Shown one piece after another: positions 2,503 to 26,475 of a DNA stretch of 32,000 nucleotides. The stretch is from Candidatus Saccharimonadota bacterium (GTDB lineage: Bacteria > Patescibacteriota > Saccharimonadia > Saccharimonadales > UBA4665). Where the stretch lies: assembly GCA_002952755.1 (NCBI GenBank), contig CP025011.1, forward strand, positions 1,080,001-1,112,000, read 5' to 3'. The notes below the pieces were generated by a model. The model was not told the origin of the DNA and searched no databases. It worked only from the letters and a program-made list of their open reading frames with translations. Made by a program: the position numbers and the translations under genes. How positions within the stretch are numbered: the first letter of the stretch is position 1; the number at the start of each line of letters is the position of its first letter.

Positions 2503-2913
2503 CTAGCAATCAAGCACGCTAACTGCAAGAGCCGCACCTATAAGTCCAATGTCGCGAAAGGTTATTAATAGCGCGCCCAAATTGGATAGAGTTATTCCAC
2601 CCAACAATACTACCGCCAATAAGCCAGCATACCGGGAAAACCTACCCCAGAGCAACCAAGCGGCAAGTATAAACTGTGCTGCCGATATACTATCGAGCAT
2701 AACCTTGGCGTCAACAATATTACTTATGGAGTGCGGGATATAGCCGATCCAAGCCTCAGGGTGGAGCAGGGCCTCAGTGGCTGCATATAAAAACACGAAG
2801 GCAAGACCGACCCGGAGTGCAAGCGACGCGAGACGAATCTTCTGTTCCGGCCGCAAGTAATTCTTTTCTGGTCTGGCATCCTGTCCTCTATTCCTATGCT
2901 TACTAGAACTCAT
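2503..2913 (-). CDS. Small 4-TM membrane protein, DoxX-like
   Basis: 136 aa with a basic N-terminus followed by four hydrophobic helices. The family call rests on general resemblance only. The start codon (2911-2913) lies inside the 2903-3070 palindrome. Confidence 0.5.
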   Translation of the reverse strand: MSSSKHRNRGQDARPEKNYLRPEQKIRLASLALRVGLAFVFLYAATEALLHPEAWIGYIPHSISNIVDAKVMLDSISAAQFILAAWLLWGRFSRYAGLLAVVLLGGITLSNLGALLITFRDIGLIGAALAVSVLDC

Positions 2914-3070
2914 CTCAAAACCTGCTTTCGAGCTAAAAAGTGCAGATTGTGGGCTGGGAAAGTTGTAGCGGGAGGAGGCGTAACCATAGTTACGGTGACG
3001 AGTGGTACGACTTTCCCAGCCTGCAAGGCTGCGGTTTTTAGCCGGAATGAGGTTTTGAGATGAGTTCTAG
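2903..3070. repeat. 168-nt nested quasi-palindrome (21-bp perfect outer inverted repeat, 12-bp inner inverted repeat, apical hairpin)
   Basis: 2903-2923 CTAGAACTCATCTCAAAACCT is the exact reverse complement of 3050-3070. 2952-2963 GGCTGGGAAAGT pairs with 3010-3021. The apical hairpin is 2979-2984/2989-2994 (CGTAAC/GTTACG) with loop CATA. The arms in between are partly complementary, for example AAAAA 2935-2939 with TTTTT 3035-3039. Confidence 0.85.
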
Positions 3071-3194
3071 CCATATTCACATTGTAACGTGGTACGCGAT
3101 CGAATAAAAACAACCCAGCTGAACGCTTACCTTGCGAAGGTAGGGCCGCACATATTACTATAGGGATATACTGTTTTAGAAGGTGGGCCTCCCG

Positions 3195-4016
3195 ATGTTG
3201 GACCAACAAAGTACCGGAACTTCACACAGGCCTGTGCCTAAAAAAGCGCATACACGTTATGCGAGCAGTTTGCTTGCAGCCATAGGTTTTTTAGCCAATG
3301 TAACCGCCATTGCCGGTCTAGTAACCAGTCATGCCAACACCATCATTATTACTGCTGCCGTCCTGGGGGTGCTATGTGGTCTCTATCTACTCTTAAAGCG
3401 CTGGGGCAAACCGGTGGGCTGGTACACCATGATGGCCACGGCAATAATTGTGGCTGGTAGCGTTATGCTATCGCTCGCCCTCAAAGACAGGCACGACGGG
3501 GCAGAAGACTCTACTGGGAATAACAGCGTTATAAGTACCAACGGGAGCAACTCCAGCACAAATACTCCTTCGAGCGGGAAACCCGTAAGCAAGACGTCGA
3601 ATCATACCCCGGTCTTCGAAAAAAGCTTCAAACTCACCTCACAGGAAGGCCTGGAACTAGATGACGAAAAGGGAACCATTCGCATGCAGCAAAGCGCCGC
3701 CAAAGCCCCAATCGATATCTATCTGAGCAATTACCCGATGCTGTATGTGAGTATTAAGCACTTTTACACTTACCAGGCACCAGAGAATCCCACAGGCAAC
3801 ACCGACAAAGACCAATACACTAGCTGCCTCAACCTCATTAATACAAGTCAACTAGGCAACAGTTATATTAGTGCATCCAGCGTCGTGCCTGGCCAGCAGT
3901 ACTGCCTTATTACGACCGGGGGACGAGTGGCGCTCATTACCATGCAGGAGATAATCGACGACGGTTATGATTCACCTAACAATAACGCCAGCTTTACAGT
4001 CAAACTCTGGAATTAA
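3195..4016 (+). CDS. Membrane-anchored protein with S/T/N-rich linker and C-terminal extracytoplasmic domain, unknown function
   Basis: ATG 3195 is preceded by GAAGGTGG 8 nt upstream; the track start 3183 is a GTG inside that RBS. There are three N-terminal hydrophobic helices, then a low-complexity NSSTNTPSSG linker. Confidence 0.6.
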   Translation: MLDQQSTGTSHRPVPKKAHTRYASSLLAAIGFLANVTAIAGLVTSHANTIIITAAVLGVLCGLYLLLKRWGKPVGWYTMMATAIIVAGSVMLSLALKDRHDGAEDSTGNNSVISTNGSNSSTNTPSSGKPVSKTSNHTPVFEKSFKLTSQEGLELDDEKGTIRMQQSAAKAPIDIYLSNYPMLYVSIKHFYTYQAPENPTGNTDKDQYTSCLNLINTSQLGNSYISASSVVPGQQYCLITTGGRVALITMQEIIDDGYDSPNNNASFTVKLWN

Positions 4017-4028
4017 TAACGACGCCGG

Positions 4029-4134
4029 AGCGACCCCCAGCATGCTCTTGGGTAGAGCGTTACACGCAGGCCGACCTCAGGTCGGTCTGGTTGCACTACG
4101 CTTGACTCTACCCAAGAGCATGCTGGGGGTCGCT
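4029..4134 (+). ncRNA. Candidate structured RNA, copy 1: 29-bp perfect stem around a conserved 60-nt core
   Basis: 4029-4057 pairs perfectly with 4106-4134. The core 4052-4111 matches 25073-25131 except in the apical loop. G:U-compatible pairs favour the + strand. Function and transcription are unverified. Confidence 0.45.
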
Positions 4135-4179: not shown

Positions 4180-4584
4180 ATGTTTAGCCTGATCAAAAAA
4201 TTTGAGAATAACCGCGTATTCAGCGAAGGCGAAGCGTGGACATTGTTCCGGCTCGCTGCTATTGGGGAAGGCTGTGGCTGGACGCTGCTCATTTCCGGTA
4301 TTCTAAGCACGCGCTTTCTTGTGCACGGCAATAATATCCCCGTACTGCTGGCCGGACAACTACACGGTATGCTCTTTTTTCTCTATGCTCTCGCAGCACT
4401 TGGACTCTATCCCAGCCTGCACTGGTCGCGTAAAAGGGCACTTGTTGCTCTCATCGCCAGCGTGCCACCGTTCGGCTCGCTCTTGTTTGAACAATGGGCC
4501 CGCTATAGAGCCGAAAGGGAACAGCTGACCACATATAGATACTGCCTAGTACTCGTGGCTCTAGCAAGTGAAGGACGGTCATAA
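4180..4584 (+). CDS. DUF3817-like integral membrane protein
   Basis: FRLAAIGEGCGWTLLISG ... AGQLHGMLFFLYALAA fits the remembered DUF3817 pattern (f..vA..EG ... G..HG.lF..Y). It has four hydrophobic segments. Confidence 0.6.
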   Translation: MFSLIKKFENNRVFSEGEAWTLFRLAAIGEGCGWTLLISGILSTRFLVHGNNIPVLLAGQLHGMLFFLYALAALGLYPSLHWSRKRALVALIASVPPFGSLLFEQWARYRAEREQLTTYRYCLVLVALASEGRS

Positions 4585-5763: not shown

Positions 5764-6249
5764 ATGCGACCACAGCTCTTCAAATATCAGGCAGGTCTGG
5801 CTGTCATTGGTGCATTTACACTTTTTCTGTGTATCTTCGTACTGTTTCAGGCTGGTGATGTGAAGCAGGATAACGCCACCTTAAAAACCGCTAGCGATAT
5901 TGCACAAAAACTTAATGACTATACCTCGAATCAACAATCAATACCTGACTCGCTCAGCGCAGTTGGCGCCCGTGATATACCTGCAGCCATCAGTTACCAC
6001 CGTCTGTCCGATACAAGCTATCAATTTTGCGTCACCTTCAAGGCAGCCGCTGGCGATACTAACGCACTCCGGCTCCTGGAAGATGCAGCCAGTCGCTCTA
6101 CAAACAGTGAGGCTACATATGATAGTGGCAATTCATCACTTTATATTTCGAGCGTTCACAAAAAGGGGGAGAATTGCCAGACTGTCACGCCCTATGTCTA
6201 CAACTACTCCGGCGCTTCCAACCAAACTGATACCTTCAACCTAAACTAA
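5764..6249 (+). CDS. Signal-anchored secreted protein, unknown function
   Basis: ATG 5764 (MRPQLFKYQAGLAVIGAFTLFLCIFVLF...) is preceded by AGGAA. The track start 5728 overlaps the upstream gene and lacks an RBS. Confidence 0.55.
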   Translation: MRPQLFKYQAGLAVIGAFTLFLCIFVLFQAGDVKQDNATLKTASDIAQKLNDYTSNQQSIPDSLSAVGARDIPAAISYHRLSDTSYQFCVTFKAAAGDTNALRLLEDAASRSTNSEATYDSGNSSLYISSVHKKGENCQTVTPYVYNYSGASNQTDTFNLN

Positions 6250-6278
6250 ATCAGCCCCATAGGCACTTTGCATAAAAA

Positions 6279-24213: not shown

Positions 24214-24391
24214 CTACGCGCTTACGCATAGCCGGACAGAAGAGATCTTAATCGAGTTATCATTAACCAAACTTTAGCGGTGGATTCTAAAGTCCGTGCG
24301 CAGGATAGTGCACCATCGTCAATACTACCCGGCTAACGTTTCGTGGTCATAATCTTATGAGACTCCACGCGCCTATATGGAGTATTTTCGT

Positions 24392-24421
24392 ACAAAAATC
24401 CCCCAGCTATGGCACTGGGGG
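24392..24421 (-). terminator. Intrinsic terminator of the 24447-24707 gene
   Basis: CCCCCAG (24400-24406) pairs with CTGGGGG (24415-24421). On the - strand the stem is followed by ATTTTTGT. Confidence 0.65.
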
Positions 24422-24446
24422 ATAGTAGAGTTCGGCTCCGTGCGGG

Positions 24447-24707
24447 CTACAGCGTCATGTCTACGAGTGTCCAGGAGCGTTCGCTGTTATTAAACTGCAG
24501 ACGGTAGTCGCGACTGCCATCGGTCATATCAAAGACCTGGATGAGCTGCTGGCCCTTGCGAACTAAGTAGCGCAAACCGTCCATGAAGGTGTATTCGCGG
24601 CCTTCGTATTCCATACGGCGAGGGTAGCTCTTTATGTTTGGGCCATCATTGGTAAAGTACAATTCGGGGATAAAAACTTCTTTGCTTACAGTGATACGCT
24701 GATCCAT
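24447..24707 (-). CDS. Small hypothetical protein (86 aa)
   Basis: GGAG lies 9 nt upstream of the ATG on the - strand and a terminator lies just downstream. No motif recognised. Confidence 0.55.
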   Translation of the reverse strand: MDQRITVSKEVFIPELYFTNDGPNIKSYPRRMEYEGREYTFMDGLRYLVRKGQQLIQVFDMTDGSRDYRLQFNNSERSWTLVDMTL

Positions 24708-25049
24708 AGGTCAAGCTCCTATTCTTTGATTTAGAGTTATTTTAAGAGGTCTGTTCGTGAGGACACGCCAGTGAACGGATTTAAAAGAGTGCTTTTAGCG
24801 GCAGGTACGACACCGTTCGTCTCGTTTGCTTCTAGCTAAAACACTTGCTTGATTCTTAGGGATTAACAGTGACGCTTAAGCATAAGACTCAGTGTGTATG
24901 TGTTCCCAAACTCTCGTATGTAAGCCTGTGAGTAAGAAGGCCCCAGGGGCCAGCACACACATTGCTACTGCTTAGTATAAACCTGCCGGAAAATCGGATG
25001 CAATAGTTTGTCCGTAGTTTCTTATACACCGTTTTTCCTGCGGTTTCAC

Positions 25050-25152
25050 GGCAACTACCCCACCCCCTCCAAGTAGAGCGTTACACGCAGGCCGACTAAA
25101 GTCGGTCTGGTTGCACTACGCTTGACTCTACTTGGGGGGTGGGGTAGTTGCC
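25050..25152 (+). ncRNA. Candidate structured RNA, copy 2: 27-bp stem (one 2-nt bulge) around the same conserved core
   Basis: 25050-25078 pairs with 25126-25152. The core 25073-25131 is identical to 4052-4111 apart from the apical loop (TAAA versus CTCAG). The outer arms are unrelated to those of copy 1. Confidence 0.45.
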
Positions 25153-25248: not shown

Positions 25249-26475
25249 ATGATGCACCGTAAAAAGGCGAAGTCTGTGACGCGCAACGAACGACCGGCAA
25301 ATCTGTTGGACCTCAATCGTTCGTTACCCAACTACACCTACCATCCCGGCGCTAGTCCAGCCATGAAGCGTGTGGCCGAACCGCCGAAACGTCGTTTTTC
25401 GTGGAAGAAATTCGCCAAATGGTCGGGTGTTTCTATCGGCATAGGCGTATTGCTTGTTGGCGGCTGGGTTGGCTGGAAACTGCTCCATAACGAACTGAAG
25501 ATTTTTGGCTGGAAGGGCATAATTAGCATCGTCAAGCCGGTCAAACTGAAAGGGGAAGATACCGGACATGTGACAATTCTGCTGGCTGGCAACTCGGCAG
25601 ACGATCCGGGCCATAACGGCGCTGATCTCACTGACTCGATTATGCTCATCAGCCTAAATACTACTACCAAAACCGGTTTTATGCTGAGCGTCCCACGCGA
25701 CTTATACGTTACAATACCAAACCTTGGATCAGGGAAGATAAATGAAGTATACGAAGACGGCGAACGGACCAAGTTTAGCCAGCCTGGCTATGCCGCCGAT
25801 GGCATGGGACTCCTCGAAGAAGTTGTCTCTCAGAACTTTAGCATTCCCATTAACTACTATGGGTTAGTCGACTATAGTGCCGTACGTCAAGCTGTTGACG
25901 CCTTGGGCGGCGTACAGATCAACGTTCAAAGCACCGATCCACGCGGCGTATACGACCCCAGCCCCGACCTCAGCAATAACTACCAACCACTCGTCAAGCT
26001 CACCAATGGCGTCCACACCTTAAACGGCACGCAGGCGCTCGGCCTGGCCCGGGCCCGCGGTGACGCGTACGGCGCATATGGATACGCCCAAAGCGACTTT
26101 ACGCGCACCCAATACCAACGCCAGGTGTTGCTGGCTATTAAAGACAAGGTGTTCTCATTGGGAACTCTGTCCAACCCCGTTAAGCTCGGTAATCTTTTTG
26201 ATTCGTTCGGCAGTAATGTCAAAACCGACATGACCTTGGCTGAAGTGAATCGCTTCTACTCGCTTACCAAAGATATCCCCAACGCGAAGATTGCTTCTGC
26301 CGGCCTCAATAATGCCAACGGCAAAAACCTGCTCGCAGGTTACACGACCGGCTCAGGCCAAAGTGCACTCGTCCCCCAGCTCGGTGCCGACAACTATAGC
26401 GACATCCAAGCATTCGTAAATCAATTGTCTAATCCGCCTGCAACCACTCAAAGTACACCCACGACAAAGAGGTAA
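25249..26475 (+). CDS. LytR-CpsA-Psr (LCP) family cell-envelope polymer ligase
   Basis: An N-terminal TM anchor, then VTILLAGNSADD...DLTDSIMLISLN...FMLSVPRDLYVTIP...GKINEVYEDG, which matches the LCP core motifs. Confidence 0.85.
   Translation: MMHRKKAKSVTRNERPANLLDLNRSLPNYTYHPGASPAMKRVAEPPKRRFSWKKFAKWSGVSIGIGVLLVGGWVGWKLLHNELKIFGWKGIISIVKPVKLKGEDTGHVTILLAGNSADDPGHNGADLTDSIMLISLNTTTKTGFMLSVPRDLYVTIPNLGSGKINEVYEDGERTKFSQPGYAADGMGLLEEVVSQNFSIPINYYGLVDYSAVRQAVDALGGVQINVQSTDPRGVYDPSPDLSNNYQPLVKLTNGVHTLNGTQALGLARARGDAYGAYGYAQSDFTRTQYQRQVLLAIKDKVFSLGTLSNPVKLGNLFDSFGSNVKTDMTLAEVNRFYSLTKDIPNAKIASAGLNNANGKNLLAGYTTGSGQSALVPQLGADNYSDIQAFVNQLSNPPATTQSTPTTKR

Follow-up and report, generated by a model that had tools for sequence, protein, structure and literature searches.

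The DNA analysed here, a stretch of 32,000 nucleotides from a Saccharimonadales genome that will be termed 'the window', carries a gene set that includes RNase J, LytR_cpsA_psr, GtrA, DUF3817 and DUF5671 proteins along with many proteins without Pfam domains; no transposase, integrase or recombinase was found in it. The best matches of the window's proteins (at 40-48% identity) come from Saccharimonadales loci that carry the repeat described below. Two copies of that repeat, each a long hairpin, are found in the window (Table 1): copy 1 lies between a gene for a membrane protein with weak Wzy_C similarity and a DUF3817 gene, and copy 2 precedes a LytR_cpsA_psr gene. The distances from copy 1 to its neighbouring genes in a preliminary description of this locus are correct (the upstream stop is at 4016 and the downstream ATG at 4180).

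Table 1. Positions of the two window copies, their parts and their neighbouring genes, and of copies with a second core type in other collected loci (L numbers)
Feature	Position	Strand	Remark or basis
Weak Wzy_C-like membrane protein gene	3195..4016	+	Upstream; stop 12 nt before copy 1
Copy 1, whole hairpin (106 nt)	4029..4134	+	Covariance model R1, 102.3 bits, E 1e-26; inverted repeat I1; fold
Copy 1, left arm (29 nt)	4029..4057	+	100% complementary to 4106-4134
Copy 1, conserved core	4058..4105	+	Same as copy 2 except apical loop; order CG, loop UUACACG, apical stem-loop (4067-4089), loop GUUGCACUA, CG, bulge CTTGA (5 nt, 4101-4105)
Copy 1, right arm (29 nt)	4106..4134	+	Inverted repeat I1
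DUF3817 gene	4180..4584	+	Downstream; 45 nt after copy 1
Copy 2, whole hairpin (103 nt)	25050..25152	+	Covariance model R1, 100.2 bits; inverted repeat I11; fold
Copy 2, left arm	25050..25078	+	Family-typical GGCAACTACCCC type with a 2-nt TC bulge; arm similarity
Copy 2, conserved core	25079..25125	+	Includes bulge CTTGA (25121-25125); sequence comparison
Copy 2, right arm (27 nt)	25126..25152	+	Sequence, inverted repeat
LytR_cpsA_psr gene	25249..26475	+	96 nt after copy 2
Second-core-type copy, L002	6784-6871		
Second-core-type copy, L034	2774-2889		
Second-core-type copy, L085	5741-5831		
Second-core-type copy, L139	3237-3351		

Two further features of the window were noted. A second, unrelated nested imperfect palindrome of ~170 nt (2900-3073; RNA MFE about -110 kcal/mol) sits between the divergent genes 2503-2913 (minus strand) and 3195-4016 (plus strand); a comparison with about 1 Mb of Saccharibacteria loci gave no relatives, and it scores only 13.7 bits with the covariance model of the repeat (R1, described below). 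The ~835 nt upstream of copy 2 (24214-25048) contain no Pfam-supported gene and give no Rfam hit, their only open reading frame encoding 86 amino acids on the minus strand (24447-24707).

The arms of copy 1 are complementary at every position, with 48 nt between them, as the preliminary description had claimed. Its central observation, that most of the core recurs in a second hairpin with a different outer stem, is likewise borne out: positions 4052-4075 equal 25073-25096 (24 nt, 100%) and positions 4081-4111 equal 25101-25131 (31 nt, no mismatches; 0 matches in 100 shuffles), while the apical loops differ (CTCAG in copy 1, TAAA in copy 2) and the left arms, over their outer 23 nt, resemble one another no more than shuffled sequences do (p 0.26). 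The outer 23 nt of copy 1 are unique to it and unlike other arms. Copy 2, however, has an arm with significant similarity to GGCAACTAYCCC arms from other genomes (L013, L017, L052 and L011; p <= 0.0025), and this is therefore a family arm rather than a private one; the outer stem of copy 2 consists of 18 perfect pairs, the 2-nt TC bulge and then 9 more pairs. Relative to shuffled sequences, both copies are predicted to fold with exceptional stability, whether as RNA (-84.1 kcal/mol, z -13.5, for copy 1; -71.1 kcal/mol, z -10.1, for copy 2) or as DNA (-48.9 kcal/mol, z -14.0, and -38.6 kcal/mol, z -8.7, respectively), and their reverse strands fold almost equally well. When model R1 was run over the window with filters off, only these two copies matched; the next best score was 13.7 bits.

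The extent of the family was determined with a search pattern that contains both internal-loop blocks of the core, CGTTACACGC-N(15-35)-GGTTGCACTACG, applied to one genome per GTDB species. This exact-core pattern identified 63 loci in 27 Saccharibacteria/Saccharimonadales MAGs (about one chance match being expected), with nearly all of the matching assemblies labelled Saccharibacteria, Saccharimonadales or Patescibacteria, and with exact copies per MAG ranging from 1 in some genomes to 8 in DATIIT and 11 in DAINPB. The same pattern with a slightly wider gap identified 90 JGI/ENA metagenome contigs, predominantly of soil and rhizosphere origin, and about 135 distinct copies were gathered in total. 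Viral contigs contained no copies of the exact-core pattern, and phage and plasmid collections no similar sequence. The window itself has no Rfam hit at the gathering score, which agrees with the earlier statement that the element is absent from that database; at E <= 10 the window returned only spurious miRNA-precursor hairpins (15-21 bits, versus thresholds of 70-80), and elements in 17 other loci gave no Rfam hit. The literature searched contains no mention of a repeat of this kind in Saccharibacteria or Patescibacteria, and this ~105-base palindromic repeat of many Saccharibacteria genomes is apparently undescribed so far.

Several of the collected loci show individual peculiarities. L058 (DATKRL010000035.1), a contig binned as Candidatus Dormiibacterota that has the same sequence as metagenome contig L086, harbors a typical copy; it was probably assigned to the wrong bin and belongs to Saccharibacteria. 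L034 contains a group I intron (5984-6259; Rfam RF00028, 78.7 bits) near its elements. In L153 (1843-2436) two inverted copies lie within ~400 bp of inverted, 97%-identical flanking sequence, an arrangement that may have arisen by foldback when this metagenome contig was assembled. For the window's own genome, exact-protein look-ups with the genes beside both copies returned only Logan contigs that begin inside the element (L064-L066 and L157-L158), all of them in its core, at a 31-mer common to both window copies, and that reveal neither an empty site nor an orientation; the repeat thus disrupts short-read assemblies of this genome. A search of metagenome contigs for orthologous loci of copy 1, using the protein encoded at 3195-4016, found no relatives, and the DUF3817 and LytR homologues in other loci do not adjoin elements.

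Most elements are 99-133 nt long. In the plus orientation of the window, each begins with an outer arm of about 28-35 nt, followed by the closing pairs G(U/A)G and then CG, an unpaired UUACACG (the 5' internal loop), an apical stem-loop with a stem of 8-15 bp and a conserved, often mismatched T in its 3' strand, an unpaired GUUGCACUA (the 3' internal loop), a second CG with a bulge of 5-6 nt (CUUGA, CUUAUA, CUGGA, CCUGA or CUUUUA), and finally CCC and the 3' side of the outer arm, which is the complement of the 5' arm. The two arms thus form an inverted repeat whose length is about 28-35 bp and in which 92.8% of cells are paired, and the tips of the arms are conserved within subfamilies (GGCAACTAYCCC and CTGACCCACGCTCAC). 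The copies share no conserved open reading frame: the reading frames of the two window copies differ, and a candidate small frame across the core, open in copy 1, has an early stop in copy 2.

Pairing of these helices is supported by extensive covariation. Covariance model R1 was built from 29 copies, and among 102 copies aligned to it, a procedure that in itself favours structure, 94.8% of pair cells are standard as compared to 57.6% in column shuffles (0 of 500 shuffles reach the observed value); the pairing can nevertheless be seen clearly in the raw sequences. Covariation reaches a score of 0.84, versus 0.16 when columns are shuffled and about 0.11 when partners are slid, and double changes are found at 33 of the 40 pairs, including all 26 outer and all 5 apical pairs.

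Conservation along the element peaks at the centre and reaches its minimum at the ends. Core conservation is roughly 90-100%, an apparent invariance that is inflated, and partly built in, by a retrieval that demanded 22 exact bases; arms show about 50% similarity between separate copies of one genome, and apical stems are near-uniform inside a genome and differ between genomes. Seven bystander copies, recovered with the model or a loose pattern only, carry between 1 and 5 changes in the 22 pattern positions. Four of the seven have a second core type, CGTT(T/A)CGCGC...GGCTGCAC (Table 1), which coexists with the main type in the same genomes and in which an A-to-G and a U-to-C change always appear together. 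As read from these sequences, the two changes are compatible with conversion of an A-U pair to G-C beside the apical stem, and may represent a single ancestral event. The conserved blocks of the core read as near-direct repeats, GTTACAC and GTTGCAC, flanking a short palindrome. Comparison of the core with motifs known from other systems (the parS half-site GTTTCAC, an IHF site, dif/Xer arms, the IS608 TTAC and the -35 box TTGAC) yielded partial matches that are not conserved across subfamilies, and these candidates were set aside.

Conserved unpaired nucleotides flanked by covarying helices, combined with a position that is A-U in one core type and G-C in the other, are what might be expected of a structured RNA motif, cis-regulatory or acting as a small RNA, whose helices would be under RNA-level selection and which a protein or another RNA would recognise through its internal loops and bulge. 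Many copies lie 0-30 nt past a stop codon, and so are probably transcribed. Such a motif was the preference of the preliminary description, and that part of its proposal which posits a structured family with an invariant asymmetric core, covarying helices and no Rfam match still stands. The preference for RNA, however, does not withstand several observations. G-U pairs are nearly absent (about 62 of 3949 cells, or 1.6%), and the mismatches in the arms comprise 58 of G:T type versus 99 of A:C type; on the mRNA-sense strand of the gene that ends beside the element the corresponding counts are 21 and 25, a distribution without preference for wobble pairs. The orientation of copies with respect to neighbouring genes is unbiased (69/57 for those facing 5' ends and 62/57 for those facing 3' ends), about 30% of the copies lie between divergent genes, where co-transcription is unlikely, and the element is found inverted at orthologous loci (described below), which would convert each loop to its complement. 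The flanks of copies are unrelated to one another, so that there is no conserved promoter or terminator, and some copies are bordered by target-site duplications. Taken together these results point to an element that acts at the level of DNA rather than to an RNA gene, and an RNA motif is in our judgement highly unlikely. As for replication, an initial GC-skew count (66 versus 38) that implied a strand bias came from non-independent loci; after removal of duplicates, GC3 skew divides the copies almost equally (38 positive, 37 negative).

The distribution of copies among intergenic spaces is far from random (36 tandem, 31 convergent and 30 divergent, versus a background of 450, 111 and 124; chi-square 29.9, p 3e-7): co-directional spaces are depleted, and convergent spaces (32% versus 16%) and divergent ones enriched. 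Copies lie a median of 11 nt from an adjacent stop codon and about 71 nt from a start codon. Generic roles for gene-end hairpins have been described for REP, ERIC and Correia elements, and the proximity to stop codons, the enrichment in convergent spaces and the great stability of the stems in both strands (so that function would be independent of orientation) could be taken to mean that this repeat too is a terminator without a U-tract, a block to 3' exonucleases or an RNase III site. An ordinary terminator had already been discounted in the preliminary description, and correctly, since there is no T-run after the stem (the sequence that follows is TGACCAGG in copy 1 and CAGCTCCC in copy 2); a terminator scan of the window also found no plus-strand terminator at the element. 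Moreover, divergent spaces, in which there is nothing to terminate, are enriched to an equal degree, the conserved asymmetric core of about 45 nt is left unexplained, and depletion within operons is accounted for equally well by a harmful polar effect. We consider that there is only a very slim chance that a generic hairpin function explains the repeat.

Direct evidence for mobility comes from the borders of the element. Direct repeats of at least 6 bp flank the hairpin exactly at its edges in 14 of 127 copies, versus about 1 expected on the basis of mismatched flanks, and four copies show perfect duplications of 8-9 bp: ATTCGTTA in L013, TAAGAAAA in L023, TCAGCGCC in L033 and AAACACTGC in L049. 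Copies that bear duplications have canonical tips, GGC(A/G)ACTAYCCC or CTGACCCAC; in the window, the former tip is present in copy 2 and not in copy 1, and no direct repeat is recognisable at either copy. Identical hairpins of 103 nt occupy two loci of one genome (L013 and L031), which indicates that the whole hairpin, arms included, is the moving unit. In L034 (2724-2930) the apical region of one copy contains another, which is of the second core type and lies in the opposite orientation; the apical stem of the outer copy doubles as the arms of the inner one. One-armed or truncated copies also exist (L043, L081 and L144), and an orthologous gene pair in L061 does not have the element that L013 carries. 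Finally, among near-identical strains, L075 (610-727) and L082 (2332-2449), as compared to L123 (286-403), have flanks that are 97-100% identical and the same core, with wholly different arms; the differing tract extends about 8-10 nt past the hairpin on both sides, and reflects either replacement of the element or independent insertion at one site.

Armed with these observations, the repeat can be recognised as small, non-coding and dispersed, with terminal inverted repeats, target-site duplications and presence/absence differences. The preliminary description had stated that it does not fit a conventional MITE, and had named many further copies with conserved terminal repeats and target-site duplications as evidence that would refute its proposal; the many copies, the terminal inverted repeats conserved within subfamilies and the duplications of 8-9 bp now largely supply that evidence. 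The element is even so no conventional MITE, because the centre rather than the termini is conserved. Against a mobile repeat are the absence of a recognisable duplication at most copies (about 90%), and the failure of a search among the collected loci to recover empty sites for six duplication-bearing copies. In addition, no autonomous partner or transposase was found beside copies or in about 1 Mb of collected loci, and the search for a parent IS with the same termini uncovered only a solo arm remnant in L033. The 140 neighbouring proteins fall into 182 housekeeping Pfam families, a diversity which implies that no gene is linked to the element in cis, and pairs of copies flank ordinary genes.

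Correia elements use TA as their target duplication, and thereby differ from the present repeat. Among the closest parallels are nevertheless the Correia/NEMIS elements of Neisseria and the ERIC elements of enterobacteria, MITEs that, like the element described here, are about 100-130 bp long, non-coding and devoid of a gene of their own, are found in intergenic DNA, often just after genes and in both orientations, form long hairpins, generate target-site duplications and reach tens of copies per genome (PMC10969869). The Saccharibacteria repeat differs from them in that its centre is conserved and its terminal repeats are most variable, with the arms kept complementary through compensated changes; its duplication is 8-9 bp long, its hosts belong to a CPR lineage with ~1 Mb genomes, and no parent IS is known.

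Transposition of the RAYT/IS200 type (HUH) leaves no target-site duplication. A second parallel is offered by REPINs and their RAYT, REPINs being hairpin-forming, non-autonomous, intergenic elements that persist for long periods by vertical inheritance with compensatory changes in their hairpins (PMC3116915; bioRxiv 10.1101/2021.07.10.451892), and that depend, in a further likeness, on a trans-acting enzyme unlinked to most copies. A REPIN, however, combines two REPs in inverted arrangement, conserved at the ends and variable in the spacer (PMC3116915), the reverse of the pattern found here, where the centre is conserved and the ends vary. No RAYT was found near copies (this Y1 HUH transposase is not among the 25 commonest Pfam families of the 140 neighbouring proteins), and the duplications of 8-9 bp differ from the REPIN/RAYT mode of insertion. 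The REP/BIME sequences of enterobacteria are likewise imperfect extragenic palindromes found at gene ends in random orientation, but REPs are about 35 nt long with a conserved GTAG/CTAC, whereas the element is about 105 nt long with an asymmetric core of 45 nt, and GTAG is not conserved across the family. Integron attC and other folded single-strand sites resemble it in being imperfect palindromes with unpaired bases, located right after a gene. In attC, however, the outer R boxes are conserved and the centre varies, and the sites lie in cassette arrays beside intI, with a fixed orientation; the element shows none of these features, its ends being variable, its copies in the window lying 21 kb apart among housekeeping genes and the window containing no integrase. 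The earlier conclusion that it is not an att site therefore holds.

Once inserted, the element appears to be long-lived. A comparison of flanks yielded eight clusters of orthologous loci, with non-identical flanks of 73-98% identity, in which the element is present throughout and has the same core (a sameness inflated by exact-core retrieval). The arms of orthologues differ at about 37% of positions, with 161 compensated double changes versus 54 uncompensated ones; judged by these alignments, the arms diverge at about the rate of neutral flanks yet stay Watson-Crick complementary. In four of the eight clusters the whole element is inverted with respect to the same flanking genes, and asymmetries of the inner arms are inverted with it. 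At one such locus, upstream of a gene that we take, from its N-terminal sequence alone, to be tyrS, the element has one orientation in L050, L091, L099, L131 and L134 and the other in L084 and L126; L146 (7265-7538) has a head-to-head pair of copies, separated by about 110 nt, at the putative tyrS locus, where related genomes hold one copy in either orientation.

The presence of both orientations at a single orthologous locus, combined with inverted repeats that flank an asymmetric segment, recalls an 'inverton', in which a recombinase would act on the arms and flip the core to alter expression of a neighbouring gene. This explanation is extremely unlikely, as the inversions are seen in comparisons between species rather than within one population, the segment to be flipped measures only about 48 bp and lacks a convincing promoter, the arm sequences differ in every copy and so cannot be a recombinase site, no recombinase gene is located nearby and many copies follow stop codons. 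A further parallel is the concerted evolution of palindromes, in which correction between arms is accompanied by flip-flop of the spacer, as in quasipalindrome template switching in bacteria and in the palindromes of the Y chromosome. There, as here, arms remain identical while lineages diverge and the spacer is found in both orientations; the arms of the element are only about 30 bp long, and the process would in this case be deduced from the comparisons described above. Complementarity of the arms may thus be maintained at the level of DNA, by templated correction or recombination from arm to arm, perhaps through template switching in a hairpin or cruciform. Such a mechanism is suggested by the restriction to Watson-Crick pairs and by the inversions, the expected product of crossover, and would explain both the inversions in place and the scarcity of G-U pairs.

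The behaviour of the core is a separate matter. It is nearly unchanged in resident copies at loci where flanks are only 73-93% identical, and it is kept in genomes with one exact copy on a ~0.8 Mb contig. This constancy, which is not predicted by the simple decay of a selfish MITE, suggests that resident copies are under purifying selection, and thus have a host-level or self-maintenance role. It has been considered whether the repeat is at root a DNA element that serves its host, in which the centre (as a cruciform, hairpin or duplex) is a putative binding site for a conserved Saccharibacteria protein such as a nucleoid-associated protein, a gyrase-like enzyme or a recombinase, with host selection keeping the repeats and transposition only spreading them. 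Both aspects of core constancy described above favour such a role, as do the indifference to orientation and the near-direct repeats GTTACAC and GTTGCAC, which are typical of protein sites. However, genomes differ in their number of exact copies (1 to at least 11), truncation or loss of copies has no obvious consequence (and the L061 counterpart of the gene pair in L013 has no copy at all), and covarying helices would be needless for a duplex binding site. We know of no protein that binds the core, and regard a primarily host-serving element as possible but rather unlikely.

The hairpin is probably a copy of a non-autonomous, foldback mobile DNA repeat, MITE- or REPIN-like, that is specific to Saccharibacteria (Patescibacteria). 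The results show that the whole hairpin moves as a unit and inserts into intergenic DNA with a target-site duplication of 8-9 bp, avoiding the spaces inside operons and showing no preferred orientation, that it can then persist at one locus across species, and that it is sometimes inverted in place. The enzyme responsible for insertion would act in trans, from a gene elsewhere in the genome, and would make staggered cuts. Its putative recognition module, or that of another conserved host protein, is the asymmetric centre, which would consist of the GTTACAC/GTTGCAC near-direct repeats around a short palindrome, together with the CTTGA bulge. A centre that is read by a protein would stay near constant while the arms change freely, and we infer that the core is read by a trans-acting protein that serves either mobilisation or a host function. 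Three points are at odds with an ordinary repeat of this kind: no autonomous partner or transposase was found beside the copies or in the window; the termini, which are normally read by the transposase, are the least conserved part; and the core is near unchanged in resident copies.

Two features, then, are not ordinary for a mobile repeat: the constant centre with free termini, and the maintenance over long divergence of both the core and near-perfect pairing of the arms. As a tentative extension, to which we attach a low probability, the centre would be a predicted site, presented by the hairpin or cruciform, for a conserved Saccharibacteria protein, in a partnership like that of REPIN and RAYT with a different class of enzyme, or for a host function such as the structuring of the chromosome. 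Insertion may in that case proceed by staggered cuts with recognition of the centre rather than the termini, or the host function may keep resident copies under purifying selection throughout an order-level clade of these CPR bacteria.

Saccharibacteria have genomes of ~1 Mb with little spare DNA, yet these contain up to a dozen or more palindromes of 105 nt with a centre whose conservation approaches that of structural RNAs. If a dedicated protein reads that centre, the repeat would be a second example of a long-lived within-genome replicator after REPIN/RAYT, in a phylum with few mobile elements and few genetic tools. The repeat also marks the lineage of environmental Saccharimonadales, and its copies offer natural data on the co-evolution of palindrome arms.
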